From positions 1 through 15,169 of the forward strand of contig NZ_JAQFIQ010000052.1 in assembly GCF_029504745.1 (NCBI RefSeq): DNA of 15,169 nt, given 5' to 3'. Numbering within the stretch: position 1 is the first letter of the stretch; every line of letters starts with the position of its first letter. A program made the translations under genes and the position numbers. Under the pieces are notes generated by a model. That model searched no databases. It saw only the letters and a program-made list of their open reading frames with translations, and was not told the origin of the DNA. Below, one piece after another: positions 1 to 15,169 of this stretch. Origin of the DNA: Breznakia sp. PF5-3 (GTDB lineage Bacteria > Bacillota_I > Bacilli_A > Erysipelotrichales > Erysipelotrichaceae).

Positions 1-94
1 TCCGTTAAAATATACTGAACCGCCGTATACGGAACCGTACGTACGGTGGTGTGAGAGGTCGGTAACTGAATTAATCAGTTACCTCCTACTCGAT
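1..94 (+). mobile_element. Group II intron, 3'-terminal part only (domain V + domain VI), class C (IIC)-like; domains I-IV and any RT/maturase ORF would lie upstream of the window
   Basis: Nt 20-49 read CCGCCGUAU-ACG-GAAC-CGU-AC-GUACGGUGG. The flanks CGCCGUAU / ACGUACGG match the near-invariant domain V core (RAGCCGUAU...ACGUACGGUUY). The lower helix is 9 bp (20-28/41-49) with a G22-U47 wobble in the triad, followed by a 2-nt AC bulge (39-40), a 3-bp upper helix (29-31/36-38) and a tetraloop. The triad is CGC (21-23). Nt 52-92 fold as domain VI: distal helix 61-69/75-83 (9 perfect bp, loop AUUAA), middle helix 56-58/85-87, bulged A88, basal helix 53-55/89-91 (+U52-G92). A88 lies 6 nt before ...GAU94 (AY-type 3' end). 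The 3' boundary is uncertain by about 3 nt. Confidence 0.7.
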
Positions 95-107
95 TATATT
101 AGGAGGT
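81..107 (+). promoter_or_regulatory. Possible SD-sequestering helix between the intron domain VI 3' strand and the hisZ Shine-Dalgarno
   Basis: ACCUCCUA (81-88) is the exact reverse complement of UAGGAGGU (100-107), with an 11-nt loop. This pairing is mutually exclusive with the domain VI helices that use 81-87. A functional role is inferred, not shown. Confidence 0.3.
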
Positions 108-114
108 ATGAAAG

Positions 115-1239
115 ATGAGAGAATTTGCAGTGCCCTCAGGAATGAGAGATTTAGTATTAGATGAAGCGAAAAAGAAAAAGGTGTTACAGTTAGAAATTGA
201 GAATCGTCTTGATAAATGGGGATATCAAGAAATTATGACACCAAGTATCGAGTTTTATCGAACATATAGTGTTGGATTTGATGATATCAGAGAAGAAGAT
301 TTATATAAATTCTTTGATGATAATGGTAGAATTCTAGCATTAAAAGCGGATATGACAATTCCTATTGCCAGAGTAGTTGCTACAAAATTTAAAGATAGCA
401 ATGAAACATTACGGTTTCGTTATTGTGCGAATGTATTCAAAGTTCATGAGACGTTATCAGGGAATAAAAATGAAATCACAGATTGTGGTGTGGAATTGAT
501 TGGTGTCGATAAAAAAACAGGTGATTTAGAAATTCTTGTGACAGCATTAGATGCTTTACAAGTTGTAAATAGTGCTAAACTCACGCTTGAAATCGGAGAT
601 GTTCAATTTTTCCAAATTGCATGTGAAAAAGCTAATCTTACAGATGAGCAAAGTGAAAAGTTAGGATATTTAATTGATCATAAGAGTCTGATAGAACTGG
701 ATGATTATCTTAATGAAATTGATTTACCAAATCAATTTAAAAAATTCTTTTCCCAAATGGTTTGGTGGAATGGAGACATTAGTATTTTTAAAGAAGTTGA
801 AAAATATGCGTTTGATGAGAAGTTGATTCAAATTATAAATAGGTTAAGAGTATTAGATAAACAATTAGCATCACTTGGATATAAAGATATTATCACCTAT
901 GATTTAGGAAAGATTGGAAACTTGAATTACTATACAGGTCTTGTATTTGATGCATTTGTAGAAGGTGTTGGATTAAGGGTTATGAGTGGTGGACGTTATG
1001 ATAATCTAATAAAAAAATATGGTATTGATTTACCAGCGGTTGGATTTTCAATTAAGTTAGATCAATTGATGAATGCTTTTTGTTATATAGATGATAGTGA
1101 GGAAATTGTTATAGAATATGGAGATGAGGATCTTTTGGAAGCATTGAAAAAAAGAGAAACATTTGAAAATGAAGAAAGAATTATTTTAAAATTAAATTCA
1201 TCACTACAAGGTGTTATTGTAAAGGGGGAAGTATCATGA
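115..1239 (+). CDS. hisZ: ATP phosphoribosyltransferase regulatory subunit HisZ (HisRS paralogue)
   Basis: 374-aa ORF with SD AGGAGGT (101-107) 7 nt upstream. It has a class II HisRS-like catalytic core (GMRD, MTPSIEFY, LKADMT, RFRY, GGRYD) but no anticodon-binding domain. An ATGA overlap couples it to a short-form hisG, the arrangement that requires HisZ. Confidence 0.9.
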   Translation: MREFAVPSGMRDLVLDEAKKKKVLQLEIENRLDKWGYQEIMTPSIEFYRTYSVGFDDIREEDLYKFFDDNGRILALKADMTIPIARVVATKFKDSNETLRFRYCANVFKVHETLSGNKNEITDCGVELIGVDKKTGDLEILVTALDALQVVNSAKLTLEIGDVQFFQIACEKANLTDEQSEKLGYLIDHKSLIELDDYLNEIDLPNQFKKFFSQMVWWNGDISIFKEVEKYAFDEKLIQIINRLRVLDKQLASLGYKDIITYDLGKIGNLNYYTGLVFDAFVEGVGLRVMSGGRYDNLIKKYGIDLPAVGFSIKLDQLMNAFCYIDDSEEIVIEYGDEDLLEALKKRETFENEERIILKLNSSLQGVIVKGEVS

Positions 1240-1880
1240 TTTCAATTGCACTCACAAAAGGAAGATTAGAAAAAGAAAGTGTAAAAATATTTGAGGCGTG
1301 TGGATATGGAGTAGAGCCATTAAAAAACAAAGGAAGACAATTGGTGTTTCATGACACAAAAAAAGATATTGATTATTTTTTGGTTAAATCTGCAGATTGT
1401 GTTACTTATGTAGAACATGGTGTAGCAGATGTGGGATTTGTAGGGAAAGATACCTTAATGGAGTCTACGAATCGATACTATGAAATCATGGATTTAGGAA
1501 TTGGAAAATGTGGATTTATAGTAGCTAGCTTACCTGATGGTGATCCTTTTAAAAAGAATACACATGTTAAGATAGGCACAAAATATCCAACTGTAGCAAA
1601 ACAGTATTTCAAAGAAAAAGGTATGGATGTGGAAATTATTAAAATTGAAGGTTCTGTAGAACTTGCACCTATTTTAGGACTATGTGATGCAATTGTTGAT
1701 ATAATGGAAACAGGAACAACACTTAAAGAAAATGGATTGATTGTATTAGATAGGATTTGTGATATCAGTGCTAGAGTAATCGTTAACAAAGCAAGCTTCA
1801 GGTTAAAAAGAAAAGAAATTACAGCTTTATTAGATGATATAAAAAAAGTGATAGGTGAAAGTAATGTTGAAACGAATTAA
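1236..1880 (+). CDS. hisG: ATP phosphoribosyltransferase, short form (HisG-S)
   Basis: 214 aa with no C-terminal regulatory domain. Motifs LTKGRL, DCVTYVEHGVADVGFVGKD and DIMETGTTLKENGL are present. SD AGGGGGA lies upstream, and there is a 4-nt overlap with hisZ. Confidence 0.93.
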   Translation: MISIALTKGRLEKESVKIFEACGYGVEPLKNKGRQLVFHDTKKDIDYFLVKSADCVTYVEHGVADVGFVGKDTLMESTNRYYEIMDLGIGKCGFIVASLPDGDPFKKNTHVKIGTKYPTVAKQYFKEKGMDVEIIKIEGSVELAPILGLCDAIVDIMETGTTLKENGLIVLDRICDISARVIVNKASFRLKRKEITALLDDIKKVIGESNVETN

Positions 1881-3156
1881 TTATAAAGATAAAAAGCAAT
1901 TTTATGAAGTACTCGAGAGTCGCAATGCTACGATTGATCCAGAAGTAACAGCATCTGTTTTAGCTATTTTACAAGATGTTAAAAACAAAGGAGATGAAGC
2001 ATTAAAGAGCTATACAGAAAAGTTTGATAAGGTATCAATTGATTGCCTTTTAGTATCTGAGGAAGAGATGGAAGATGCATATAGTCAAGTTGATGAAGAG
2101 TTTATTAGTATTTTAAAACAAGCAAAGCAAAATATAGAAGAATATCATAATTTACAACTTACAGATGGCTATGAAATACAAAAGGAAGATGGAGTTTATT
2201 TGGGACAGCGAATATTACCGTTAAATCGAGTAGGAATTTATGTTCCTGGAGGAACAGCAGCTTATCCAAGTACTGTATTGATGGATGTGATTCCAGCAAA
2301 GATTGCTGGTGTTAAGGATATTGTTATGGTGACACCACCCAATAAGGATGGTAAAATAAATCCTTTTATTTTAGCGACAGCAAAAATAGCGGGAGTCAAT
2401 AAAATATATAAGGTTGGTGGTGCACAGGCAATTGCTGCATTGGCATATGGAACAAAGACAATACCACAGGTTGATAAAATTGTAGGGCCAGGTAATATGT
2501 ATGTTGCTGAAGCAAAAAAACTGGTATATGGGCAAGTAGATATTGATATGATTGCAGGTCCTAGTGAAATTTTAGTGATTGCAGATGAAAATGCAAATCC
2601 TAAATATATTGCTGCTGATTTAATGTCGCAAGCAGAGCATGATCGAATGGCGAGTAGTATATTGGTAAGCACTTCACAACCATTAATCAATCAAGTGGAA
2701 GTGGAAATAGAAGCACAAATGAGCACGTTATCAAGAATTGATATTATGAAAGATTCATTCCAAAATTATGGATATGCAATATGTGCAGATTCGATTGATG
2801 ATGCAATTGAAGTGTCAAATAAAATTGCTCCTGAACATCTTGAAATGATGGTGGAGAACCCTAAAAAATATCTACCTCAAATCACCAATGCAGGAAGTAT
2901 ATTTTTAGGATATTATACATGTGAAAGTATTGGAGATTATTTTGGGGGAACAAATCATGTATTACCAACAAATGGAACAGCAAGATTTTATTCACCACTT
3001 GGTGTAGATAGCTTTATGAAAAAGTCATCTTATATGTATTGGAGTGCAGAAGCATTACAAAAAGATGGTAAAAAGATTATCAGATTTGCTGAACAAGAAG
3101 GATTGGATGCACACGCGAACGCTGTGAAAGTGAGGTTAGATAATGAAAGATATTAA
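1864..3156 (+). CDS. hisD: Histidinol dehydrogenase
   Basis: HisD motifs GPGNMYVAEAKK, QAEHD and APEHLE are present, with an HVLPT region. The ORF track starts at GTG 1855, but ATG 1864 has GGTGA (1854-1858) 5 nt upstream, so I prefer it. The stop is unambiguous. Confidence 0.92.
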   Translation: MLKRINYKDKKQFYEVLESRNATIDPEVTASVLAILQDVKNKGDEALKSYTEKFDKVSIDCLLVSEEEMEDAYSQVDEEFISILKQAKQNIEEYHNLQLTDGYEIQKEDGVYLGQRILPLNRVGIYVPGGTAAYPSTVLMDVIPAKIAGVKDIVMVTPPNKDGKINPFILATAKIAGVNKIYKVGGAQAIAALAYGTKTIPQVDKIVGPGNMYVAEAKKLVYGQVDIDMIAGPSEILVIADENANPKYIAADLMSQAEHDRMASSILVSTSQPLINQVEVEIEAQMSTLSRIDIMKDSFQNYGYAICADSIDDAIEVSNKIAPEHLEMMVENPKKYLPQITNAGSIFLGYYTCESIGDYFGGTNHVLPTNGTARFYSPLGVDSFMKKSSYMYWSAEALQKDGKKIIRFAEQEGLDAHANAVKVRLDNERY

Positions 3157-4159
3157 TGCATATGAAGCACAGGAAAATCAAGGATTGTTATTAAATGCTA
3201 ATGAAAATCCAAATAATATAAGGATTGATGTTAGAGAAAAAATTGCAAAAGCAATACTAGATATCAATTTTAATCGTTATCCAGATGATCAATCTAATCA
3301 ATTAAGAGAAGCTTATAGTGAATATATAAAAATACCTGTAGAACAAATTATAGTTGGAAATGGAAGCGATGAAATGCTGGGGTTAATGATTAATCTTAAC
3401 CTTGGAGAAGGAAAAAAATTATATACGGTTGAATTGGATTTCTCTATGTATGACTACTATACAAGTATGCAAGGGGGAGAAGTCATTCGATTCCCATTTG
3501 CTGTAGATGATGAATTCGATGTAAATAAATTTATAGCCTATGGAAAAGAAAAAGATGTTGATATGCTTCTTTTTTCTAATCCCAACAATCCTACAGGAAA
3601 AGCAATTTGTAATGAGGATATCATAACGATTGTTGAAGCATTTCGTGACAAAATCGTCATTATTGATGAAGCCTACAGTGAGTTTAATGACGCTAGTATG
3701 GTAGCATATACGAGCATGTATGCTAATTTACTAATCACTAGAACGTTATCAAAAGCATTTGCTTTAGCGGGTATACGTTGTGGATTTTTGATAGGAAATG
3801 AGCAACTCATTTCACGTATTATGCCATATAAAGTTCCATACAATGTAAATACATTAACACAAACAAGTGCAATCATTGCATTGCAGTATAAGGAAGAAAC
3901 TTTAGAAGATATAAAAAGAATAAAGAAGCTTCGGGATGAAATGTATGAAAGTTATAATGCTATGCAATTAGATAACGTGAAACTATATCCATCAAAAGCA
4001 AATTATTTGTTCGGTATTACAAAAAATAAAGAAAAATTATTGTCTGTATTTGAAAATGCTGGAATTCTTATTCGTAATTATGAAGGGGATAGTTTTCGAA
4101 TTACTATTGGAAATAAAGAAGATAATGATAGAGTACTTGCGTTATTAGCTACAATATAG
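3143..4159 (+). CDS. hisC: Histidinol-phosphate aminotransferase
   Basis: Class II aminotransferase with NPNNPTG, IIDEAY and the PLP-lysine motif TLSKAFALAGIRCG. SD GAGG lies 7 nt upstream. It overlaps hisD by 14 nt. Confidence 0.9.
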   Translation: MKDINAYEAQENQGLLLNANENPNNIRIDVREKIAKAILDINFNRYPDDQSNQLREAYSEYIKIPVEQIIVGNGSDEMLGLMINLNLGEGKKLYTVELDFSMYDYYTSMQGGEVIRFPFAVDDEFDVNKFIAYGKEKDVDMLLFSNPNNPTGKAICNEDIITIVEAFRDKIVIIDEAYSEFNDASMVAYTSMYANLLITRTLSKAFALAGIRCGFLIGNEQLISRIMPYKVPYNVNTLTQTSAIIALQYKEETLEDIKRIKKLRDEMYESYNAMQLDNVKLYPSKANYLFGITKNKEKLLSVFENAGILIRNYEGDSFRITIGNKEDNDRVLALLATI

Positions 4160-4168
4160 GAGGTTATT

Positions 4169-4753
4169 ATGTCAAGGGTAAAACAAAGTGTAAGGAATAC
4201 AAAAGAAACACAGATTCAAGCAATGCTTAATCTTGATGGAACAGGAAAAGCAGATGTTGAAACAGGGATTGGATTTTTTGATCATATGATTACATTGTTA
4301 TCTTTTCATTCGGGTATAGATATAACATTACAAGCCAAAGGTGACTTAGAGGTATGTGATCACCACACAATCGAAGATTGTGGTATTTTGTTGGGTCAAT
4401 TATTTAATGAAGCAATTGGTGATAAAGCAGGAATACAACGTTATGGAAGTATGCGTATGGTAATGGATGAAACCTTATGTAATGTGGATTTGGATATTAG
4501 TGGTCGTCCTTATCTTGTGTATAACTGTGATTTGAAAAGAGATATGATTAAAGACTATGCATGTGAAATGACCAAAGAATTTTTATATGCTTTTGCAATT
4601 AATGCAAGAATCACATTACATGTAAATGTAATTTATGGAGATAATGACCATCATAAAGTAGAATCAATATTTAAGGGCTTAGGGCGTGCGCTAAAAACGG
4701 CAATAAAGGTTGATGGATATGAAATACCTTCCTCAAAAGGAGTTATTCAATGA
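4169..4753 (+). CDS. hisB: Imidazoleglycerol-phosphate dehydratase (monofunctional)
   Basis: 194 aa with IGPD metal motifs GIGFFDHM, DHHTIED and GDNDHHKVES. SD AGGAGG is at 4158-4163. There is no fused HAD phosphatase domain. Confidence 0.93.
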   Translation: MSRVKQSVRNTKETQIQAMLNLDGTGKADVETGIGFFDHMITLLSFHSGIDITLQAKGDLEVCDHHTIEDCGILLGQLFNEAIGDKAGIQRYGSMRMVMDETLCNVDLDISGRPYLVYNCDLKRDMIKDYACEMTKEFLYAFAINARITLHVNVIYGDNDHHKVESIFKGLGRALKTAIKVDGYEIPSSKGVIQ

Positions 4754-5361
4754 TTGCTATTATTGATTATGGTATGGGGAATCTTCATAGTGTTGAAAAT
4801 GCATTGATAAAGATTGGTGCTGAATGTAAAATAACAAATCAAAAAGAGGAAATCTATAAAGCAGATGGAATAATTCTTCCTGGTGTTGGGGCTTTTCAAG
4901 ACTGTATGAACAACTTAAACGATCTATCTTTGGTTGAAGTGATTAAAACAATTGTAGAACAAGGAAAACCACTTCTTGGTATTTGTTTGGGAATGCAAGT
5001 GTTATTTGAAAAGGGGTATGAAGGAACAGAGTGTGAAGGTTTGGGGATTTTAAAAGGGAACATCGTTTTAATGAAAGACCAAAGTGTTAAAATACCACAT
5101 ATTGGATGGAACCGTTTAGAAAGAAATAAGGATGATTTCTTATTTGATGATTTAAAAAATAATGTATTTGTATATTACGTACATTCTTATTATGCATCTG
5201 ATTATCAAGATGATGACCTTGTTGCCTATTCAAATTATGGGTCTTTAAAAATACCTGGTTATGTCCATAAAAACAATGTCTTAGGAATGCAATATCATCC
5301 AGAAAAAAGTGGTGAAGATGGATTGGAAATGTTGAAAAAGTTTAAGGAGATGTGCAAATGA
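4750..5361 (+). CDS. hisH: Imidazole glycerol phosphate synthase, glutamine amidotransferase subunit
   Basis: Class I GATase with the nucleophile elbow GICLGMQ and the YVHSY and QYHPEKS motifs. It has an ATGA overlap with hisB. Confidence 0.93.
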   Translation: MIAIIDYGMGNLHSVENALIKIGAECKITNQKEEIYKADGIILPGVGAFQDCMNNLNDLSLVEVIKTIVEQGKPLLGICLGMQVLFEKGYEGTECEGLGILKGNIVLMKDQSVKIPHIGWNRLERNKDDFLFDDLKNNVFVYYVHSYYASDYQDDDLVAYSNYGSLKIPGYVHKNNVLGMQYHPEKSGEDGLEMLKKFKEMCK

Positions 5362-6077
5362 TTATATTACCAGCAATTGATATTATTGATAGTAAGCCAG
5401 TTCGTTTATATAAAGGTGATTATAACCAAGTTGAAGAGGTTTCTGGGACGGTACTAGAAGTAGCGAAGACATTTGAAACAGAAGGAGCACAATACCTTCA
5501 TATTGTAGATTTAGATGGGGCAAAAGATGGAAGTATGGTAAATAAAGACTTGATAATAGAACTCGTCAATCAAGTAACAATTCCAATTGAAGTAGGTGGG
5601 GGTATTCGTTCGATGGAAGCAATATCATATTATTTAGATCATGGAGTAGCACGTATAATTTTAGGGACAAGTGCAATTGATAATAAAGATTTACTTAAGG
5701 AAGCTTTAGAAAAATATGGCGATAGAATAGCGGTTGGTATTGATTTTAAAGATGATTATGTGTATGGACGAGGATGGTTAGAAGCTAGTAATTTGCATTA
5801 TGTTGAGTTTGCTAAAGATTTGGCAACCCTTGGTGTAAAGACTATTATCGTTACTGATATTTCAAAAGATGGTACTTTAGAAGGACCTAATGTAGAGATG
5901 TTGAAAAGATTATCAAAGGAAGTAGATATAAATATTATTGCTTCTGGAGGGATTAAAGATATCAATGATATAAAAGCATTAAATGATATTCATGTATATG
6001 GTGCAATCACAGGAAAAGCGATGTATCATAAAACTTTGGATTTAAAAGAAGCATTAAAAATTAGTAAGGGGGAATAA
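5358..6077 (+). CDS. hisA: ProFAR isomerase (1-(5-phosphoribosyl)-5-[(5-phosphoribosylamino)methylideneamino]imidazole-4-carboxamide isomerase)
   Basis: The N-terminus MIILPAIDI and the motifs [15 protein letters not shown] and ASGGI are present. The ORF track starts at GTG 5352. ATG 5358 forms an ATGA overlap with the hisH stop and lies 8 nt after AAGGAG, so I prefer it. Confidence 0.92.
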
Positions 6078-6078
6078 G

Positions 6079-6840
6079 ATGCACACAAAAAGAATCATTC
6101 CTTGTTTAGATGTGAAAGAGGGAAAAGTTGTAAAAGGCATTAATTTTGTTGGTCTAAAAGAAGTTGGCGATCCTGTACAATTAGCAAAAAAATATTATGA
6201 GCAAGGTGCTGATGAAATTGTCTTTTTGGATATTGGAGCGACACATGAGAATCGTGACACAATGGTAGATGTTGTAAATCAAGTAGCAAAAGCAATTTTC
6301 ATTCCCTTTACTGTAGGTGGTGGAATTCGAAGCGTAGAAGATATGCGCAAAATGCTATTAGCTGGTGCTGATAAGATTTCACTTAATTCAGCAGCTATAA
6401 AAGATCCACAGTTAATTGAAGATGGAGCAAAAATTTTTGGGAACCAATGCATCGTGGTAGCGATTGATGCGAAAAAAAGAGATGATGGTACAGGATGGAA
6501 TGTGTATATCAATGGTGGACGTATCGATACGGGAATGGATTTGATTGAATGGACAAAAAAAGCATTGGATTTAGGTGCTGGGGAAATATTGTTGACAAGT
6601 ATGGATGCGGATGGAACAAAAGAAGGGTTTGATATTGAAATGTTAAGAGCAGTAAATACATTTGCAAATGTTCCAGTGATTGCTTCAGGAGGTTGTGGAA
6701 GTCTTAAAGATTTCAAAGAAGTATTTCAGGAAGATGTAGCAGATGCGGCATTAGCAGCATCTTTATTTCATTACAATGAGGTAAGTGTTAAGGAAGTGAA
6801 GGAATTTTTAGATGAAGCAAAGATTCCAGTGAGGATGTAG
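6079..6840 (+). CDS. hisF: Imidazole glycerol phosphate synthase, cyclase subunit
   Basis: [26 protein letters not shown] and IASGG motifs are present, with SD AGGGGGA upstream. Confidence 0.95.
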
Positions 6841-6846
6841 GTAAAT

Positions 6847-7185
6847 ATGATTGATAAGATAGATTTTGATAAAAATAATGGTTTAATTCCTGTGGTTGTA
6901 CAAGAAGAAAAAACTAATCAAGTATTGATGCTAGCTTACATGAATAAAGAAAGCTTAGAAAAAACTTTAGCCACAAAACTAGCAACATATTATTCACGAA
7001 GCCGCAACGAATTATGGATAAAAGGGGAAACAAGTGGTCATTTCCAACATGTCAAAGAAATGTATTTGGATTGTGATTATGATACAATATTAATGGTTGT
7101 AAAGCAGGATGGAGTGGCTTGCCATACAGGAGAAAAGTCTTGTTTTTTTAACGAATTGTTAGGAGGTAATAAAGATGAAAAATGA
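6847..7185 (+). CDS. hisI: Phosphoribosyl-AMP cyclohydrolase (stand-alone)
   Basis: 112 aa with [23 protein letters not shown] and [10 protein letters not shown] (zinc/cysteine motif). Confidence 0.93.
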
Positions 7186-7504
7186 ATTACAAGTTCTATA
7201 TGAAACACTATTAGATCGAAAAGAAAATGCGGAAGTAGGATCCTATACAGCTTACCTTTATGAAAAAGGGGTTGAAAAGATTCTAAAGAAGGTTGGAGAA
7301 GAATGTACAGAAGTTATCATTGCATCAATGAAGCCAGATAACAAAGAAGAAATAGTCAATGAAATCAGTGATTTGCTTTATCACTTGTTTGTATTGATGG
7401 CAGAAAAAAATATTACCCTTGAAGATGTTAATAGAGAATTGGAAAAGCGAAGTCATAAGAAAGGGAATTTGAAGGCAGAAAGAAAGCCAGTGGATGATTA
7501 TTAA
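7175..7504 (+). CDS. hisE: Phosphoribosyl-ATP pyrophosphatase (stand-alone, MazG-like)
   Basis: 109 aa with GSYTAYL and [13 protein letters not shown] motifs. SD AGGAGG (7161-7166) lies 8 nt upstream. It overlaps hisI by 11 nt. Confidence 0.9.
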
Positions 7505-8276
7505 AATGCAAAACTTTAATTATCATACACATACATATCGTTGTGGACATGCTACTGGGGAAGATGAAGAATATATTAAAAATGCTATTAAAGGTGGATT
7601 TAAAACACTTGGTTTTAGTGAGCACTTAGGGTATCAAGGATGGGATGATAAAAAAGAACGGATTGATTTTAATAAGGTAGATACATATATACGTGATATG
7701 TATGCACTAAAAGAGAAATATAAAAATCAAATTGATCTTAAGATAGGGTTTGAATTTGAATATTTTGAAGATCATGAAGAATACTTGAAGTCGATATATG
7801 ATAAAGTTGATTACATGATTATTGGACAACATGCGAAAAACTTTAATATGTACTATGAACACGGAAGTACAGATGATGATATTGATGTTTATGCATCTCA
7901 AATTTGTAAAGCTTTAGATCTTGGACTTACAAAATATGTTGCACATATTGATTATTTCATGTTAGGATTGAAAGAGTTCAGTGAACAAAATGCAAAAGCT
8001 ATTGAAAAGATATGTGATGCCGTATTACGTAATGATGCTTATATTGAAGTTAATATTAAAGGCAGCAAATATGGTAAGAAGTTATATAATGGAATAGAGC
8101 AATATATTTATCCACATTATGATGTTTATAAAATAGTTGCTCAAAAAGGCTGTAAGGTAGTTTTTGGATATGATGCTCATAGTCCTGATGCCTTGCTTGA
8201 AAGAGAAAAAGAAATAGCTTTGAAAGAAGAGTTTAAGAACTTAAATTTAAATTATCAGGATAGCATTATCTTATAG
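7494..8276 (+). CDS. hisK: Histidinol-phosphatase, PHP family
   Basis: 260 aa with the N-terminal PHP metal motif YHTHTYRCGHA, then FSEH, HIDY and GYDAHSP. Its position as the last his enzyme, together with a monofunctional hisB, supports the call. The start is uncertain: ATG 7494 overlaps hisE, ATG 7506 is an alternative, and neither has a strong SD. Confidence 0.8.
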   Translation: MIIKMQNFNYHTHTYRCGHATGEDEEYIKNAIKGGFKTLGFSEHLGYQGWDDKKERIDFNKVDTYIRDMYALKEKYKNQIDLKIGFEFEYFEDHEEYLKSIYDKVDYMIIGQHAKNFNMYYEHGSTDDDIDVYASQICKALDLGLTKYVAHIDYFMLGLKEFSEQNAKAIEKICDAVLRNDAYIEVNIKGSKYGKKLYNGIEQYIYPHYDVYKIVAQKGCKVVFGYDAHSPDALLEREKEIALKEEFKNLNLNYQDSIIL

Positions 8277-8287
8277 GGGGAGCAACT

Positions 8288-9148
8288 TTGATTAAATTAT
8301 TTGTAAGCGATTTAGATGGAACTTTATTAAATGAAAATCATGAAGTATCACAAGCGAATATAGATGCAGTAAAAGAAATGAGAAAACATGGAATATCATT
8401 TTTACCTGCAAGCGGAAGAAGTTATTTAGGACTTCAAGCGGCTATATCTGCTTTGCATATTCATCCAAAATGTATTTGCTTGAATGGGGCAGAGTTTTAT
8501 GATAATGATGGAAATCGATTGATTTCAAACCCTATTTCAATTGAAAAGACAAAGGAAATCCAAGTTTTACTTAAAACCTTGGATTGTTATACAGATTATT
8601 ATTGTGAAGATGCTCATTATCTAGTGTATGGTGGCAATGATCTTGAAGCTTTTTTTCTAGAGCGTTTTGCCTTTTTGTTTTATGGAGAAAAATTAGATGA
8701 TCCAATTGAATTTTTAAAAGAAAATGAAGCTCTTGGGGAAACAAAGACAATTGCTAGAGATGAAGAAATATTGGATAAAACAATTTTAAAAATAGAATTG
8801 GTATTTAAAACGGATAAGGCTAAAGCTGCGGCATTAGAAAAGTTAAATGAAATTGATGATATAATTACAACATCTTCCCATGAATTAAATCTTGAGATTA
8901 ATTCAATTGAAGCAACAAAGGGTCATATGATTGAGCAAGTATGTGAAACTTATGGATATGATAAAGAGGAAGTTGTTGTTGTTGGCGATGGAATTAATGA
9001 TATTCCAATGCTAGAAAAATTTCCTAATTCTTATGCTATGGGACAGGCAAGTGATGTTGTTAAAAAGGCAGCAATGTTTGAAGCTGATTCAAATTCTAAT
9101 GATGGAGTAGCTAAGTTGATACACGAAATTATTGCAAATAATAAATAA
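8288..9148 (+). CDS. HAD-superfamily hydrolase, Cof-type (subfamily IIB) sugar/phospho-metabolite phosphatase; substrate unknown
   Basis: HAD motifs are present: I DLDGTLL, II ASGRS and IV GDGINDIPM, with a large cap insertion. It starts at TTG 8288, with GGGGGAG 8 nt upstream. It lies 11 nt after hisK with no terminator in between. Confidence 0.85.
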   Translation: MIKLFVSDLDGTLLNENHEVSQANIDAVKEMRKHGISFLPASGRSYLGLQAAISALHIHPKCICLNGAEFYDNDGNRLISNPISIEKTKEIQVLLKTLDCYTDYYCEDAHYLVYGGNDLEAFFLERFAFLFYGEKLDDPIEFLKENEALGETKTIARDEEILDKTILKIELVFKTDKAKAAALEKLNEIDDIITTSSHELNLEINSIEATKGHMIEQVCETYGYDKEEVVVVGDGINDIPMLEKFPNSYAMGQASDVVKKAAMFEADSNSNDGVAKLIHEIIANNK

Positions 9149-9156
9149 GAGAAAGT

Positions 9157-9184
9157 ACTGATTCAAAAAGAGTCAGTTTTTTTA
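9157..9184 (+). terminator. Rho-independent terminator of the his-HAD transcription unit
   Basis: An 8-bp stem ACTGATTC / GAGTCAGT (one G-U pair) with loop AAAAA is followed by T7 (9177-9183), starting 9 nt after the stop codon. Confidence 0.75.
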
Positions 9185-9207
9185 TTAATGGGAATATTTT
9201 ATTTTTG

Positions 9208-9236
9208 TTGACGCTGGTTATGACCAGTGGTATGGT
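9208..9236 (+). promoter_or_regulatory. Candidate sigma-A promoter of the SIS gene with an embedded palindromic operator
   Basis: The -35 is TTGACG (9208-9213). A 17-nt spacer precedes an extended -10, TGG-TATGGT (9228-9236). The spacer contains the inverted repeat CTGGT-TATG-ACCAG (9214-9227). The predicted start would fall right at the SD (9243-9249), so the leader would be very short. Confidence 0.4.
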
Positions 9237-9254
9237 GTATGTAAGGAGGCGATT

Positions 9255-9992
9255 ATGAAAAAACGATATGAGGAATTTGCAGACATTATGAAAGAGCAGT
9301 TGAATCAAGCTTTACAACAAGAAGATATTTTAGATCAAGCTAGTGAAATTATGAGTGATACGGTTGCCACAGGTGGAGTGATTCATGTTTTTGGATGTGG
9401 ACATTCGCAAATGTTTGGTGAGGAATTATGCTTTCGTACAGGCGGATTGGTACCAGTCAATGCCATTATGATACCTCAATATAATATTTATCCCAATGTG
9501 AAATTATCACAGATTATGGAACGCCAAGAAGGGGTAGCACAGGGTGTGTTGGATTCTATGGTGACAACACCAAAGGATACGATGATTATTGTATCTGTTT
9601 CTGGTCGTAATGCAGCAGGAATTGATATGGCGATTGCTGCACATGATAAAGGTATGAAGGTAATTGGAGTGACCTCTTTAAATTATTCTAATCAAGTAAC
9701 TTCAAGACATAGTAGTAAGAAGTTGCTTAAAGATGTTAGTGATGTAGTTATTGATATTTGTGGAGTAAAAGGCGACTCTGTTTTAGAAGATAGTAGAGTT
9801 AGTGAGAAGTTTTGTTCTACTTCTACTGTTGTGGCTATGAGTATTCTTGTAGGAATTGTTGGTGAAGTTATTGTAAAACTTGCTGATAGAGGTATTAATC
9901 CTCCAATTTGGGTAAGTGGGAACCTAGATCGAGGAGATAAAATAAACGAAGAATACATTAAACAATATAAAGGAAAAGTTAGTATCTTATAA
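9255..9992 (+). CDS. SIS (sugar isomerase/phosphosugar-binding) domain protein, UPF0309-like
   Basis: 245 aa with GGVIHVFGCGHSQMFGEE, VSVSGRNAAGIDMA and a Rossmann-like SIS pattern. SD AAGGAGG lies upstream. Confidence 0.8.
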   Translation: MKKRYEEFADIMKEQLNQALQQEDILDQASEIMSDTVATGGVIHVFGCGHSQMFGEELCFRTGGLVPVNAIMIPQYNIYPNVKLSQIMERQEGVAQGVLDSMVTTPKDTMIIVSVSGRNAAGIDMAIAAHDKGMKVIGVTSLNYSNQVTSRHSSKKLLKDVSDVVIDICGVKGDSVLEDSRVSEKFCSTSTVVAMSILVGIVGEVIVKLADRGINPPIWVSGNLDRGDKINEEYIKQYKGKVSIL

Positions 9993-9994
9993 AA

Positions 9995-10029
9995 AAAGGA
10001 ATTTTGAACCATTGGTTCAAAGTTCCTTT
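9995..10029. terminator. Bidirectional intrinsic terminator shared by convergent genes
   Basis: AAAGGAATTTTGAACC-ATT-GGTTCAAAGTTCCTTT forms a ~14-bp stem with one mismatch. It has an A-run on the left and a T-rich tract on the right, so it works in both directions. The right arm abuts the stop codon (10029-10031) of the minus-strand gene. Confidence 0.7.
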
Positions 10030-10904
10030 CATTTTTCCCAACGTCCATAAATTCCACAAGGCAGGGTGTTTTTTGTCTTTGTAATTGGTAAGCCAATCTC
10101 TCCACAGGTAATTGTGCCGTGTTTCATTTTTTTATATACACTTGTTTGTAAAACATTATGTAATACGGTTGCACTAAATCCTGTTGTATAAGAGTTTACT
10201 AAAAAGAAAATAGCATCATCACTTAATATATCTAAACATGCGTCAATAAGTGGATATAATTGCTCTTCAATTTTCCAAATTTCTCCATTAGGACCACGTC
10301 CATAACTAGGAGGGTCCATAATGATTGCATGATATGTACGACCTCTTCGTTTTTCTCGTAAGACGAATTTTAAGACATCATCGACGATGAAACGTATTTT
10401 TTTGTGCGTCAATTTTGAAAGTTGCATATTTTCTTTCGCCCATTGCACCATTCCTTTACTAGCATCAACATGTACGACTTCTTCAGCTCCTGCACTAGCA
10501 CAAGCCATTGTCGCACCACCAGTATAGGCAAAAAGATTTAAAACCCTTATATCATTGCGATTTGAAGCTTTGATTTTATCCATCATATAGTCCCAGTTTG
10601 CAGCCTGTTCAGGGAATAAGCCAGTATGTTTAAAACCAGTAGGTGACACTTTAAATGTCAAATGACCATAGTCGATAGTCCAATACTCTGGTATTTTTTT
10701 ATGAAATTCCCAATGACCTCCACCAGATGTAGAACGATGATAATGTGCATGACATTCTTTCCAATTGTTATCAGCTTTATCAATTGGCCAAATAATTTGA
10801 GGATCAGGGCGACGAAGAACAATATTTTTCCATCGCTCTAGTTTTTCTCCATTTCCACAATCGATACATTCATAGTCTTTCCAATTTGTTGCAACTTGAT
10901 TCAT
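10029..10904 (-). CDS. Class I SAM-dependent methyltransferase, RlmI/RlmK-type (PF10672-like) rRNA methyltransferase core
   Basis: 291 aa with FKHTGLFPEQ, motif I VLNLFAYTGG, an HVDAS region, and motif IV IIMDPPSYGRG. SD GGAGA lies upstream. No PUA domain is recognisable. Confidence 0.8.
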   Translation of the reverse strand: MNQVATNWKDYECIDCGNGEKLERWKNIVLRRPDPQIIWPIDKADNNWKECHAHYHRSTSGGGHWEFHKKIPEYWTIDYGHLTFKVSPTGFKHTGLFPEQAANWDYMMDKIKASNRNDIRVLNLFAYTGGATMACASAGAEEVVHVDASKGMVQWAKENMQLSKLTHKKIRFIVDDVLKFVLREKRRGRTYHAIIMDPPSYGRGPNGEIWKIEEQLYPLIDACLDILSDDAIFFLVNSYTTGFSATVLHNVLQTSVYKKMKHGTITCGEIGLPITKTKNTLPCGIYGRWEK

Positions 10905-10927
10905 ATTTTGTCTCCTAAACTCTCATT

Positions 10928-10956
10928 ATTATAACACATATAAAAAAAGATAAGAA
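10928..10956 (-). promoter_or_regulatory. Candidate promoter of the methyltransferase gene (extended -10)
   Basis: On the minus strand there is TGT-TATAAT (+ coords 10928-10936), a 17-nt spacer, and a weak -35 TTCTTA (10951-10956). Confidence 0.4.
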
Positions 10957-10978
10957 ATATCTATATTTATGATATAAT
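10950..10978 (+). promoter_or_regulatory. Candidate promoter of the lipoprotein gene (extended -10)
   Basis: TGA-TATAAT lies at 10970-10978. The -35 (ATAAGA, 10950-10955) is poor and overlaps the -35 of the divergent promoter. Confidence 0.4.
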
Positions 10979-11012
10979 GATAAGTACATGATGAAAATAC
11001 ATGGAGGATTTT

Positions 11013-11648
11013 ATGAGAAAAATAACAATAGTATTCATGACGTCATTGCTTTTCTTTTTAGCTTCATGCGGTGGCAACAAAGATGATGAAGTAAAGAAAA
11101 CAGAAATTAAGATAGATAAAAATGAGGTTTATACACCACCAAAAAATCCTACAGATTATCAAGCAGAAACATATAATGCTTTGACTAAAGCTTTAAAAAA
11201 GAATAATGAGGAAGCAGTTGCTAAACTTGTAGCTGAAAACTTCACAGCTGATTTCTTCACTTTGAAAAATAAGGAAAGTGCAGAGGATGTTGGTGGACTG
11301 ACATATTTTCCTGCAACACGACAAGAAGAATTCAAAACATTTGCAATGAATTATGTATATTCAAATTATCAATTAATTAAAGATGATTATGGAAAATCGA
11401 GTTTGCCTGTCGTAGAGGAAGTTAAAGTAGGTAACGTAAGCAAAGAAACAATAACATATAAAAATATTATTCCAAGTGAAGATGAAAATGTAGAAGATCA
11501 AGTTGAAGAAAATGAATATGAAGGATATGTAATTAACATTACGATATCTTATGAATCAACAGATGTTCCTGATAAAGACTTAAAGAAAGAAGCTGTCATT
11601 TATGTAATTAAACTAGATGAGCGACTTGTGATTATAAAGTTAGATTAA
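11013..11648 (+). CDS. Lipoprotein of unknown function
   Basis: The signal peptide MRKITIVFMTSLLFFLASC carries the lipobox L-A-S-C (Cys codon 11067-11069). The mature part has an acidic patch (EDENVEDQVEENEYE), and I recognise no family motif. The ORF track starts at ATG 11001, but GGAGGA (11003-11008) sits inside that codon run and serves ATG 11013. Confidence 0.75.
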   Translation: MRKITIVFMTSLLFFLASCGGNKDDEVKKTEIKIDKNEVYTPPKNPTDYQAETYNALTKALKKNNEEAVAKLVAENFTADFFTLKNKESAEDVGGLTYFPATRQEEFKTFAMNYVYSNYQLIKDDYGKSSLPVVEEVKVGNVSKETITYKNIIPSEDENVEDQVEENEYEGYVINITISYESTDVPDKDLKKEAVIYVIKLDERLVIIKLD

Positions 11649-11659
11649 AATTTGTGATA

Positions 11660-11697
11660 AAGGCCCCTTCTTTAGTATTAAAGGGGCTTTCTTTGAA
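11660..11697 (+). terminator. Rho-independent terminator of the lipoprotein gene
   Basis: A GC-rich stem GCCCCTT (11663-11669) / AAGGGGC (11681-11687), extendable by A-T/G-U pairs, is followed by TTTCTTT. Confidence 0.7.
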
Positions 11698-11713
11698 TTC
11701 TTTATGAAAGCGG

Positions 11714-11742
11714 TTGCAATGACTTCTGATAAATGTTACTAT
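11714..11742 (+). promoter_or_regulatory. Candidate sigma-A promoter in the lipoprotein / 5'-nucleotidase intergenic region
   Basis: The -35 is TTGCAA (11714-11719). A 17-nt spacer precedes the extended -10 TGT-TACTAT (11734-11742). Confidence 0.4.
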
Positions 11743-11779
11743 ATGTTCGTTAAAGGATAGTGATTGTATTTTACAAGCT

Positions 11780-11836
11780 AAACCTATTTACGTATGAAAA
11801 CATAGATTTTTCATATTGTAGATAGGTTTTTATTTT
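11780..11836 (+). terminator. Two-tier AT-rich hairpin plus T-run (terminator/attenuator-like)
   Basis: The outer stem is AAACCTAT (11780-11787) / ATAGGTTT (11822-11829). The inner stem is TATGAAAA (11793-11800) / TTTTCATA (11808-11815). Both are 8 perfect bp, followed by TTTTTATTTT (11827-11836). Confidence 0.35.
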
Positions 11837-11960
11837 GAAACTAATAAAGAATGCAAGTTAATTTGTAGTTTTTATAGTGCTCAAAATAGCTTTATAAAAA
11901 ATAGGAGGTGAAAAAAAGCGAATTATAATATAGTTTTTCAGTTAATTTTAGGGAGGAAAT

Positions 11961-13667
11961 ATGAGAAATAAAATTAAAAAGATTGTATTATCATTATTTG
12001 TAATTGTTACTGCTATTTTTGCAGGAAGTATAAATGTAACGGCAGATACAAATGAAGATTATGATGAAAAAGTAACGATTGTACATACGAATGATGTACA
12101 TGGGTATGTAGCTATTGAAGCAAAAGTAAAAGGATATATGAACACACTTGATGTGAATCAACAACGTACACTTGTCTCTGCAGGAGACATGTATATGGGA
12201 AGTGTATTTGCAAACCTTAATAAAGGTGAAGATGTTGTACGGGTTATGAATGCAATGGGATATGAAATGATGACATTAGGGAATCATGAATTTGCTATGG
12301 ATTATACACAATTAAGAAAAGTAATCCAACAATCAAATTTTCCTGTTTTAGGAGGAAATGCACAAGCTGACTTATTGGATGCTATTCCCGAAGTAGGTGA
12401 TTATGTAATTAAAACATACAATGCAGGAAATAGTAAGCAAGTAAAAGTTGCATATCTTGGAATAACGACAACTTATAAAGCAGAAGGATTTGGCCCTAAG
12501 ATGGTCCAACAAGCAAATGCAATGCGTTCTGCTGCAGAAGATGAAGGAGCAACCATTTTTATAGCTGTAACTCACTTAGGGGTTACAGATAGCAATAAAG
12601 AACTGACAAGTTACTACTTAGCGGAAGAATGTCCATGGTTAACTGCAATTATTGATGGTCATTCACATTCCATTGTTAATGAAAAATATAAAGGTGTTAT
12701 GATTGCACAAACGGGAGGAGAAGGAGCTGGTTTTGGTGTCATGAATCTATATTTTAAAGATGGGAAATTAGTAGATATTGATTCTGAAACAATTAATAAA
12801 GATAATGGCTTAGCGGATATCCAAGATGATCCTACCATCGCTGCTCTCATTGCTCAAATCAATGAAGAACATAAACCAATTCTTAGTCAGGAAATATTTA
12901 TGAATCCGGTATTCTTAAGTGGTACTAGAGAAGTAGTAAGGGCAAGTGAAACTAATTTAGGGAATATTGTTTCTGATGCATACTTAGGGGCAGCAGGAAG
13001 TGATGCAGTGATTGGTTTTGCACCTTCGGTTACAATCCGTCAAGATTTGCAACCTGGACCTGTGAGTTTAGGGGATATTTATAATACTTTAGGATCAGAA
13101 CAACGCTTATTATCATTTGAAATGAGTGGCGCCCAAATCTGGAAAGCAATGGAAAACTGTGTAGAAAGTTGGCCAGAGAAAACCAATGCCTTTCAACAAT
13201 TTTCTGGAATGCATGTGAAGTTTGACCCAAATAATGAAGTAGGCAGTCGTATTGTCGAAATAACATTAAAAGATGGAAGTGTAATGGATTTATCAAAAAC
13301 ATATCGAGTAGTAACACGAGAAGATCTATTAATGCACTTCTTAAATGATGAAGAACAAGCGCAAACTACATTTAAGGAACATGGATATGTATATCCAACG
13401 TTCATTGCATATGCACAAGCAAATGCAGCAACATTTAAAGCTGAAAAAGAAGGACGCTTAGAAATTGTAGATAGTAAAAAAACAGATCCAGATAAAAAGC
13501 CAAAACCGAAACCAAGGCCAACAGGGGATAATGATAATAAAAAGGTGGCGAGTTTAGAAGGAAAGCCAAGTACAGGGGATACAAACAATATCCAATGGTT
13601 ATGGGGATTAGCTGCAATATCATTATGTGTAATTCTTATTACGAAACGCAGTTCATCAAAACAATAG
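11961..13667 (+). CDS. Secreted, cell-wall-anchored 5'-nucleotidase / 2',3'-cyclic-nucleotide phosphodiesterase-family metallophosphoesterase
   Basis: 568 aa with an N-terminal signal peptide. Calcineurin-like motifs HTNDVHG, GDMYMGS, GNHEF, THLG and GHSH are present, followed by a 5'-nucleotidase C-terminal substrate domain. The C-terminus has a K/P-rich linker, a KPSTGD motif, a hydrophobic segment and a KRSSSKQ tail. SD GGGAGGA lies upstream. Confidence 0.85.
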   Translation: MRNKIKKIVLSLFVIVTAIFAGSINVTADTNEDYDEKVTIVHTNDVHGYVAIEAKVKGYMNTLDVNQQRTLVSAGDMYMGSVFANLNKGEDVVRVMNAMGYEMMTLGNHEFAMDYTQLRKVIQQSNFPVLGGNAQADLLDAIPEVGDYVIKTYNAGNSKQVKVAYLGITTTYKAEGFGPKMVQQANAMRSAAEDEGATIFIAVTHLGVTDSNKELTSYYLAEECPWLTAIIDGHSHSIVNEKYKGVMIAQTGGEGAGFGVMNLYFKDGKLVDIDSETINKDNGLADIQDDPTIAALIAQINEEHKPILSQEIFMNPVFLSGTREVVRASETNLGNIVSDAYLGAAGSDAVIGFAPSVTIRQDLQPGPVSLGDIYNTLGSEQRLLSFEMSGAQIWKAMENCVESWPEKTNAFQQFSGMHVKFDPNNEVGSRIVEITLKDGSVMDLSKTYRVVTREDLLMHFLNDEEQAQTTFKEHGYVYPTFIAYAQANAATFKAEKEGRLEIVDSKKTDPDKKPKPKPRPTGDNDNKKVASLEGKPSTGDTNNIQWLWGLAAISLCVILITKRSSSKQ

Positions 13668-13673
13668 TAAAAG

Positions 13674-13699
13674 AAAAGCTAACATTATGTTAGCTTTTT
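13674..13699. terminator. Bidirectional intrinsic terminator between convergent genes
   Basis: AAAAGCTAAC-ATTAT-GTTAGCTTTT has a perfect stem flanked by an A-run and a T-run. It overlaps the stop codon (13698-13700) of the minus-strand reductase gene. Confidence 0.75.
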
Positions 13700-14540
13700 A
13701 AAATTCAATAGTATCAGGATTTTTGTTTGAACTGACATCATCATATGCTAAATTATCAATATAAGCGATATCATTATCATCTAAGGTGAAATCAAAAACT
13801 TGGATATTTTGCTTAATTCGTTTAGCATTTGTCGAACGTGGAAGTGGTAAATATCCTTTTTGTAATTGCCAACGTAGAATAATTTGAGCAACACTACAGT
13901 TATATTTGTCAGCAATGTCTCTTAATTCCAACTTATCTAATAGTTTAGCTCTTCCTAAAGGGCTATAAGCTTCAATCAAAATATTTTTTTGTCGACAATA
14001 GTGCACAATATTATTTTGTAGTAAACCAGGATGTAGTTCAATTTGATTTACCATAGGGATTATTTTACACGTTTCTAATAATGCATCTAAGTGATGTTCC
14101 ATAAAATTAGAAACACCAATTGCACGGATTTTCCCTTGATTGTATAAATCTTCCATTGCACGATAAGACTCAGCATTCATTTGCTTCCAATTTGTACGGT
14201 ATTTTACAGGGTTTGGCCAATGAATTAAATATAAGTCTATATAATCAATACCCAATTTCGCTATTGAGGTTTCAAAGGCTTGTATCGTTTCATCATAACC
14301 TCTTACATCATTCCATAATTTTGTTGTGATAAAGATGTCTTCTCTTTTTATTGAACTTTGTTTTAGTGCTTCTCCTATAAATGCTTCGTTTTTATAAATA
14401 GCCGCCGTATCAATGTGACGATACCCACTTTCTAATGCAGCGGTTACGGCTGCAACACAGATATCATGTTCGTCTAGTGTCCATGTACCAAAGCCAATGC
14501 TAGGTATGGAAATATTATTTGCTAACATATAGTCCTTCAT
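13698..14540 (-). CDS. Aldo/keto reductase (2,5-diketo-D-gluconate / glyoxal reductase-like, AKR)
   Basis: 280 aa with the AKR catalytic tetrad context (HIDTAAIYKNE, TKLWN, LIHWP) and GVSNF. SD GGAGGC lies upstream. It is separated by a 15-nt gap from the upstream nitroreductase gene. Confidence 0.9.
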   Translation of the reverse strand: MKDYMLANNISIPSIGFGTWTLDEHDICVAAVTAALESGYRHIDTAAIYKNEAFIGEALKQSSIKREDIFITTKLWNDVRGYDETIQAFETSIAKLGIDYIDLYLIHWPNPVKYRTNWKQMNAESYRAMEDLYNQGKIRAIGVSNFMEHHLDALLETCKIIPMVNQIELHPGLLQNNIVHYCRQKNILIEAYSPLGRAKLLDKLELRDIADKYNCSVAQIILRWQLQKGYLPLPRSTNAKRIKQNIQVFDFTLDDNDIAYIDNLAYDDVSSNKNPDTIEF

Positions 14541-14555
14541 TGAGATGCCTCCTTT

Positions 14556-15068
14556 TTAATATTTGTTCCAGTGAACGATTTCTTTTATCTCTCTTCTAGG
14601 GCGTTTTTGAAATGCTTCACTTGTATAACCAAGTGGTGTCATTGCTACAATTCGAAGATGCTCTGGAATATGTAGAATCTTTTTTATCTTTTGTTCAGGG
14701 AAGACGCCAACCCAACAAGTACCCAAACCTAAAGAAGTTGCTTCTAAGATGCTGTGTTCAATTGCAATGGCACTATCACACATATAATAAGGTTTATCAT
14801 CTCGAAGACCACTTTTAGTAGGATCTGCAATAAAAACCAATAAGTGACTTGCTTTTTTATATGCAGATTCACTAGGGTTGAAATTCGCTAGTTCACCAAT
14901 TTCTAATTGTAAATCCTTATTATCAATACAAATGATTTCAAAGCATTGTTTGTTTTTCCAAGTAGGAGATAATTGCGCAGCAATCAACACCTTCTCCAAT
15001 AATTCATTCTCCACTTGTTTGTCCGTATACTCTCTTGCACTAAATCTTTTATTTATAACATCTAACAT
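14556..15068 (-). CDS. Nitroreductase-family FMN oxidoreductase
   Basis: 170 aa with the N-terminal RFSAREY motif, the QLSPTWKNKQ region and the GLGTCWVG motif typical of the nitroreductase fold. SD AGGAGG (+ coords 15075-15080) lies upstream. Confidence 0.85.
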   Translation of the reverse strand: MLDVINKRFSAREYTDKQVENELLEKVLIAAQLSPTWKNKQCFEIICIDNKDLQLEIGELANFNPSESAYKKASHLLVFIADPTKSGLRDDKPYYMCDSAIAIEHSILEATSLGLGTCWVGVFPEQKIKKILHIPEHLRIVAMTPLGYTSEAFQKRPRREIKEIVHWNKY

Positions 15069-15169
15069 AACTTACCTCCTCGTATAATATGTAATGTAAT
15101 CAAACAGAAGCATCGCCTTCAATATCGATTGCATTTACACTCTAATTAATAGATAATAGATTCGTTTTG

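Follow-up and report, generated by a model that had tools for sequence, protein, structure and literature searches.

Introduction

Group II introns of class C (IIC) differ from those of classes IIA and IIB in a distal domain V stem that is 2 bp shorter and in a CGC catalytic triad that replaces AGC (Toor et al., 2006; PMC1702495). They are located downstream of terminator stem-loops, and exon recognition takes place through IBS1 and IBS3 only (PMC1702495). Among the reference members of the class, the introns of Oceanobacillus iheyensis and Bacillus halodurans (B.h.I1) share with the locus described here the CGC triad, the shortened distal stem and AC bulge of domain V, the bulged A in domain VI, the ...GAU 3' end, and a 5' exon made up of a terminator stem-loop and a U-run (PMC1702495). 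They differ from it in that the present host belongs to the Erysipelotrichaceae, the distal stem of domain VI is longer, and the target is the terminator of a T-box and not the end of a gene; moreover, the present intron is known from 94 + 86 nt. The domain V of the O. iheyensis intron departs from the one studied here by only one compensated pair in the distal stem, and an Oceanobacillus genome (L071) carries the very same domain V 30-mer.

The nearest sequences found are IIC introns of Lactobacillaceae (L034, from Loigolactobacillus backii, 1910 nt; L060, L074, and L099), with an identical domain V, a domain VI that agrees at 40-43 of 45 positions and whose differences are compensatory, and 5' ends that are 67-73% identical. 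However, they belong to another host family and lie behind ordinary terminators, with no riboswitch or T-box upstream. At the protein level, the GsI-IIC reverse transcriptase (PDB 6AR1) and the Eubacterium rectale IIC ribonucleoprotein (PDB 7UIM) combine RVT_1 and GIIM without an endonuclease domain, as does the protein of the full-length relatives; no protein could be retrieved for the Breznakia copy. A precedent for the genomic context has also been described, in which a SAM-I aptamer is followed by a group IIC intron behind an intact riboswitch terminator, an arrangement interpreted by its authors as a selfish insertion and not as an expression platform (Sherlock et al., 2022, review; PMC9481103). 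In the case presented here, the sensor is instead a tRNA-His T-box and the downstream genes form the his operon.

The window analysed is a stretch of 15,169 nucleotides from Breznakia sp. PF5-3 that begins 114 nucleotides before hisZ. The most probable reading, to which we assign a probability of about 0.85, is that nucleotides 1-94 comprise the end of domain IV together with domains V and VI of a IIC intron inserted in sense orientation in the his leader, between the His T-box terminator and hisZ. This reading is based on domains V and VI with IIC signatures, on an intron 5' end found behind a T-box terminator on a syntenic sister contig, and on orthologous sites that have no intron.

Results and discussion

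The window opens with domains V and VI of a group II intron

An initial annotation, made from the letters of the window alone, had noticed a GC-rich start and read it as domains V and VI of a class C intron. Indeed, the GC content is 0.595 at nt 19-60 and 0.50 at nt 19-94, compared with 0.326 at nt 95-15169, and the following features were assigned to this segment.

1-94, + strand: 3' end of a group II intron of class C (IIC), matched by Rfam RF00029 at 18-94; the contig, and with it the window, starts within the intron
1-18, + strand: end of domain IV and putative tail of the ORF for the intron-encoded RT/maturase (stop candidates TAA 6-8 and TGA 16-18)
19-50, + strand: domain V (basal stem 19-28/41-50; triad C21-G22-C23; G22-U47 wobble; A39-C40 bulge; distal stem 29-31/36-38; loop GAAC)
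52-92, + strand: domain VI helix with bulged branch-point adenosine A88 (MFE fold; 9 of 16 pairs with double changes in relatives)
94-95, + strand: 3' splice site ...CUCGAU^U, with T95 as first base of the 3' exon (IBS3 position)

In the MFE fold of nt 1-114, positions 19-31 pair with 36-38 and 41-50, giving a domain V with a basal stem of 10 bp, a distal stem of 3 bp, and a loop spanning G32-C35. Domain VI is formed by pairing of 52-58 and 61-69 with 75-83, 85-87, and 89-92; A88 is the sole bulged base on its 3' strand and is followed by CUCGAU up to nt 94, which places it seven nucleotides from the 3' end of the intron, within the 7-8 nt characteristic of group II introns. The folding energy was -38.7 kcal/mol (z = -4.1), and none of 200 dinucleotide shuffles of the same segment was as stable. 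The triad C21-G22-C23 with its G22-U47 wobble is directly visible in the window sequence, and the remaining hallmarks of a group II intron, the two-nucleotide bulge and the bulged A in domain VI, are also present. Thus, all the structural details that the initial annotation had listed (wobble, A39-C40 bulge, 3-bp upper helix, bulged A88) were found.

The covariance-model search that had been proposed along with that annotation returned a significant, full-length match. The Rfam family RF00029 (Intron_gpII, domains V-VI) aligned from model position 1 to 77 of 77 with window positions 18-94 on the + strand, with 48.1 bits against a gathering score of 40 and E = 5e-7 for the whole window, and it was the only Rfam family detected in nt 1-400 at E<=1.

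GC-rich palindromes lying directly upstream of hisZ could also be taken for chance palindromes, or for helices of a histidine attenuator or T-box, with no intron involved. The probability of such an origin for nt 19-94 is practically negligible, given that the covariance-model match is full-length, that covariation is strong, and that genuine introns from many phyla have identical sequence at their 3' ends. The T-box or attenuator reading was rejected because the upstream T-box, located on the sister contig L144, does not need these bases to be complete. The initial annotation had named a histidine T-box with helices explaining nt 19-94 as the finding that would overturn it; the T-box that was found lies upstream of the intron, does not overlap with it, and provides, through its terminator, the target of the intron. 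Within the window, no match to a T-box was obtained in nt 1-400 at E<=1.

With respect to the segment that precedes domain V, the intron-encoded protein of the closest relatives (L034, L060, L074, and L099) ends at a TAA located about 10 nt before this domain. A conserved TGAA stands before the domain V 30-mer in 79 of 121 matches, and its TGA is the ORF stop in many other relatives. The stop of the window copy may be TAA 6-8 instead of TGA 16-18.

The intron belongs to class C

The two diagnostics on which the initial annotation had based its class assignment, the CGC triad and the shorter distal stem, are those of Toor et al. (PMC1702495), and both were found in the window. The triad is C21 G22 C23, and the distal stem comprises 3 bp at 29-31/36-38, where the Rfam alignment requires a deletion of 4 columns. 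As a further property, introns of this class insert in sense orientation just behind an intrinsic terminator stem-loop or attC; such a terminator was observed on L144, whose link to the window is provided by synteny. A protein of the class C lineage without endonuclease domain is encoded by relatives with identical domain V. By analogy with the exon contacts described in PMC1702495, T95 would play the role of IBS3. An EBS2 is lacking in the class.

Relatives with the same domain V are widespread and their helices covary

The exact 30-nt core of domain V (nt 20-49) was found in at least 120 loci of a species-representative genome set, in hosts that range from Bacillota to Pseudomonadota and Spirochaetia. 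Together with 13 metagenomic copies of domain VI, these are the additional copies that the initial annotation had suggested looking for. In these relatives, domain VI varies in sequence and in length, and its pairing is always kept. Its terminus CUAC(U/C)CGAU is conserved, with a CGAT end in 99 of 111 copies. Since the relatives are unrelated to each other past CGAT, the 3' splice site was placed after nt 94 of the window. The first exon base after the intron is T in 82 of the 111 copies, in agreement with T95.

Covariation was evaluated in an ungapped alignment of 23 rows, comprising the window and 22 distinct relatives of equal length. Standard pairs occupy 99.6% of the pair cells, compared with 35-48% when the partners are slid; changes on both sides were detected in 13 of 29 pairs, and none of 500 shuffles attained the observed covariation. 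The invariance of domain V in this alignment is uninformative, because most rows had been fetched by means of the exact domain V 30-mer; the covariation within this domain stems solely from L126 and L137, and the rest is located in domain VI. The protein of L137 comes from a host of higher GC. Scanning metagenomes with the exact domain VI revealed 13 introns with a different but compensated domain V (CCGCCCCGUACC...GGUACGCGGGGUGG), which are the source of the domain V covariation; none of these 13 comes from the hisZ locus studied here.

Full-length relatives with identical domain V are approximately 1.8-1.9 kb long, counted from 5' splice site to 3' end (1910 nt in L034). They carry the Rfam families group-II-D1D4-3 and D1D4-1, corresponding to domains I-IV, and encode an RT/maturase of 425-470 aa with RVT_1 and GIIM and without endonuclease domain, whose frame stops 2-12 nt before domain V. 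Hence, domains I-IV and an ORF ending a few nucleotides before domain V, which the initial annotation had proposed to look for upstream of the window, were seen in the relatives, and the Breznakia copy may have an interior of this kind. The best structurally solved kin of the protein are the GsI-IIC reverse transcriptase (6AR1, E=7e-119) and the E. rectale IIC maturase (7UIM, 1e-113), whereas the IIA protein LtrA reached only 1e-45. A Breznakia RT/maturase was not found among the best 120 matches to the L099 protein, which bear names of Lactobacillaceae or Sporolactobacillus or are nameless.

The 5' side of the relatives is equally uniform. In about 25 of them, folding of the 60 nt upstream of GTGCG gives a strong terminator-like hairpin, and the T-run behind it stops 0-8 nt short of the splice site. 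Among the 24 other relatives for which 5' flanks were available, no copy adjacent to a riboswitch or T-box was detected.

Two additional types of arrangement were observed among the relatives. Tandem copies of IIC introns occur in L086 (both copies) and in L061; in L086, domain VI of the first copy lies immediately 5' of the second, and the 3' hairpin of the intron itself seems to be the target stem-loop. On the other hand, ORF-less or internally deleted derivatives that retain the identical domain V 30-mer and have their 5' splice site just 0.5-1.2 kb away from domain V were found in L028, L031, L045, L059, L062, L105, L109, L102, and L060, the last one with an internal deletion of the RT/maturase that appears to be in frame.

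The occurrence of such derivatives, with the same domain V, in other genomes raises the possibility that the window copy is also non-autonomous or decayed, that is, ORF-less or internally deleted with only its two ends intact, and either mobilised or spliced with the help, in trans, of a protein encoded by other copies, or without any splicing left. The known 94 + 86 nt are compatible with it, as the interior lies outside the retrieved contigs. Although nt 1-18 resemble the usual end of the ORF and of domain IV, this segment is retained by ORF-less copies too. Nevertheless, domains V and VI show no disabling change, the former being identical in at least 120 loci and the latter in 13 metagenomic copies, and the breaks in the assemblies (see below) indicate that the sequence is repeated in the genome, as would be consistent with active copies. 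Overall, we regard a non-autonomous copy as unlikely, while still deserving serious consideration.

The 3' exon leads into an intact his operon

Downstream of the intron, the window continues with the following features.

95-114, + strand: 3' exon, the remaining his leader, which aligns with the segment after TTTTTG in the intron-less loci L122, L123, and L145
115-8276, + strand: his operon hisZ-G-D-C-B-H-A-F-I-E plus a PHP-family gene, with intact frames and in the same orientation as the intron

The Shine-Dalgarno sequence AGGAGG is located at 101-106, 8 nt before the hisZ ATG. The encoded HisZ shows 100% identity to the HisZ protein of Breznakia sp. PF5-3. No promoter-like site was found on the + strand in nt 1-114, which include the region from domain V to hisZ. 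Within the operon, hisI (PRA-CH, 112 aa) and hisE (PRA-PH, 109 aa) are separate, overlapping genes at 6847-7504 and not a fused hisIE, and the PHP-family gene at 7494-8276 probably encodes the histidinol phosphatase. Further downstream, an ORF of 215 aa without Pfam match (11001-11648) is followed by an intergenic gap of 312 nt (11649-11960), behind which lies a gene whose product carries a 5'-nucleotidase C-terminal domain; in the region 11001-11960, no Rfam family reached the gathering score.

Intron-less loci define the insertion point

The nearest hisZ loci without intron (L122/L139, L123/L124, L140/L141, and L142/L143; HisZ identity of 63-71%) have a T-box leader directly upstream of hisZ (RF00230, 129-132 bits) with the specifier CAC (His), and their terminator and T-run end approximately 15-20 nt before the start codon. 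A T-box immediately upstream of hisZ was found in all five distinct intron-less relatives. An intron-less hisZ locus is also present on L145, a contig whose GntR is identical to that of B. pachnodae. Its genes follow the same order as those of L144 as far as the last one before the T-box, with a single difference, an extra small ORF of 95 aa in L144. From there on, L145 contains the T-box, the terminator, TTTTTTTG, TTTATTATAAGGAGG, and hisZ-hisG-hisD, with no intron between them. The intron-less junctions read GGATGAAAGTTTTTTTG TTTATTATAAGGAGG...ATG in L145 and GGATGAAGGTCTTTTTG TTTACATGAAGGAGG...ATG in L123.

Because the intron-less relatives are colinear through the T-box and terminator into hisZ, the insertion could be placed at TTTTTG^T. 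This point lies 6 nt past the terminator stem (...GUCUUUUUUUG^); the Shine-Dalgarno sequence begins 6 nt and the start codon of hisZ 20 nt further downstream. The empty site reconstructed in this way can be aligned to three intron-less sites (L122, L123, and L145) with neither gap nor duplication. At this position, the other Breznakia-like hisZ loci that were retrieved are all free of an intron.

The 5' junction is found on a sister contig

All five contigs recovered by an exact search with the HisZ protein start at the same point inside the intron, and 56 of the 121 exact domain V matches in other genomes are also located less than 100 nt from a contig start. The coincident start can be explained by a repeat that short-read assemblers cannot cross. 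The upstream side was reached through the GntR gene conserved upstream of intron-less hisZ loci, whose orthologue in Breznakia sp. PF5-3 (P0242, 75% identity) is located on L144 (JAQFIR010000054.1; 14,880 bp). The end of this contig contains the following features.

L144, after the last gene and before the T-box: promoter-like TTGACA-17-TATAAT
L144 14537-14777: complete His T-box (RF00230, 121 bits, specifier CAC)
L144 14760-14772/14776-14788: T-box terminator stem, 13 bp
L144 14787-14793: T-run, followed by G14794
L144, after G14794 to the contig end: intron 5' end GTGTGCTAGGCATGG...GGTGAAAGTCC...GACAAGGGTGTCC, 86 nt

The intron begins on L144 with GTGTG, a GUGYG-type 5' end, and the T-run ends 1 nt before it; a 5' end of this type, for which the initial annotation had proposed to look, was found where synteny places the upstream DNA of the locus. 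The terminal 86 nt are colinear with the 5' ends of IIC introns and show 72-73% identity to L034 and L074, members of the same subgroup that contains the most similar domain VI. The tail of the 5' exon, TTTTTTTG^GTG, is identical in L144 and in L060 (...TTTTTTTG^GTGCG). When L144 and the window are joined, the site reads GGATGAAAGTCTTTTTTTG^[intron]^TATATTAGGAGGTATGAAAGATG.

The two junction contigs come from different sister assemblies (GCA_029504775.1 and GCA_029504795.1). A single base distinguishes position 109 of the window (G) from position 108 (A) of L001 (JAQFIS010000055.1), 6 nt before the hisZ ATG (GGAGGTATGAAAG vs. GGAGGTATAAAAG), so that the window stems from a sister strain or assembly; the HisZ proteins are identical. 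The proposed join from T-box to hisZ across the intron relies on synteny and on the complementary intron ends. No retrieved contig runs all the way from the T-box through the intron into hisZ; when metagenomes were scanned for CCTACTCGATTATATTAGGAGGTAT, the junction of intron and hisZ, 0 matches were obtained, and no second intron end was detected in the window, at its other end or anywhere else, when GTGCGCCCGGCATGGG was searched at <=3 mismatches.

The two intron ends might also derive from different insertions, with nt 1-94 representing a 3' remnant, or with extra DNA (tandem introns or a rearrangement) lying between them. The lack of a spanning contig among those retrieved would fit such a situation, as would the tandem IIC copies of L086 and L061. 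However, L144 and L145 are colinear up to the T-box, except for the 95-aa ORF, and L145 proceeds straight into hisZGD; the rebuilt empty site fits the three intron-less sites; and both ends are closest to one intron subgroup, that of L034/L060/L074. Different insertions are consequently improbable, and a single intron between T-box terminator and hisZ is the preferred reading.

Upstream of the his T-box, a conserved cluster was observed in Breznakia-like genomes (L144 9352-14432, L122 1-3586, and L145 8757-13441). Besides small ORFs, it contains genes for a C39-peptidase ABC exporter, an AprE-like beta-barrel protein, and a tryptophan-rich conserved protein of 110/111 aa without Pfam match, and looks like a bacteriocin-type export locus.

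Proposed mechanism of insertion and expression

From what is known of IIC mobility (PMC1702495; Zimmerly and Semper, 2015, PMC4424553), and by analogy with it, the intron RNA and its RT/maturase would have recognised in DNA the terminator stem-loop, an IBS1 of 3-4 nt, and an IBS3 of 1 nt (T95). Reverse splicing into DNA at the terminator would have been followed by copying from a replication-fork primer, which is expected to be used because the protein has no endonuclease domain. Once inserted, the intron would be transcribed only upon read-through of the T-box, i.e., when tRNA-His is uncharged, given that nt 1-114 contain no promoter-like site and intron transcription must rely on this read-through. 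Splicing, whether it proceeds through branching at A88 or through hydrolysis, would restore the normal leader ...UUUUUUUG|UAUAUUAGGAGG...AUG, with UUUUUUUG|UAUAUUAGG as the predicted ligated junction, and unspliced RNA would still hold the hisZ ribosome-binding site. Since the leader would be restored by splicing and the ribosome-binding site kept in unspliced RNA, the insertion is expected to be nearly neutral, with a low cost for the host. This corresponds to the usual 'safe harbour' logic of IIC intron insertion.

An effect on the host operon can nevertheless be envisaged. The 3' strand of domain VI at 81-88, A88 included (ACCTCCTA), is the exact complement of 100-107 (TAGGAGGT), which contains the hisZ Shine-Dalgarno sequence, and this pairing could mask the ribosome-binding site in unspliced RNA. 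A more elaborate scenario would be one in which uncharged tRNA-His switches on intron and RT/maturase, resulting in a retromobility coupled to starvation, while his expression requires passage through, and perhaps splicing of, a ribozyme of about 1.9 kb, and CCUCCUA (81-88) might mask the Shine-Dalgarno region (100-107) until splicing has occurred. We consider this scenario improbable; if true, the locus would represent a retroelement that is gated by a riboswitch and, as a side effect, influences the regulation of its host operon.

A step further, the intron might have been co-opted for his regulation, either by unmasking of the hisZ ribosome-binding site from the domain VI CCUCCUA in a splicing-dependent manner, or through a starvation-gated expression of the retroelement that is relevant to the host. 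The exact complementarity of 81-88 to 100-107 and the dependence of intron transcription on T-box read-through speak in favour of such a role, to which we nonetheless attribute a very low probability. Indeed, CCUCCUAC is conserved across the whole intron family whatever the context, domain VI pairs with itself in the MFE fold, the other retrieved Breznakia-like hisZ loci have no intron at this site, and the published combination of SAM-I and IIC intron was judged to be a selfish insertion (PMC9481103). An anti-Shine-Dalgarno role of domain VI was set aside on account of the family-wide conservation of CCUCCUAC and the self-pairing of the domain.

Significance

The element is a new copy of a well-known intron type and involves no new kind of element or mechanism. 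Its T-box context is uncommon yet expected from the known target rule and, with the SAM-I precedent already published, constitutes a minor curiosity. Its value lies mainly in annotation and assembly: the insertion explains why every short-read assembly of this Breznakia lineage is interrupted at precisely two points, before hisZ and behind the his T-box, and it implies that a repeated IIC intron should be used to connect the two contigs. The locus also provides an example, resolved to the base and accompanied by intron-less orthologous sites, of a IIC intron at the terminator of a riboswitch-type leader and not at a gene-end terminator. Such a position would place a retroelement under the control of tRNA-His, in the 5' UTR of an essential biosynthetic operon, and this locus is a natural test case for the harmlessness of 'safe harbour' insertions.
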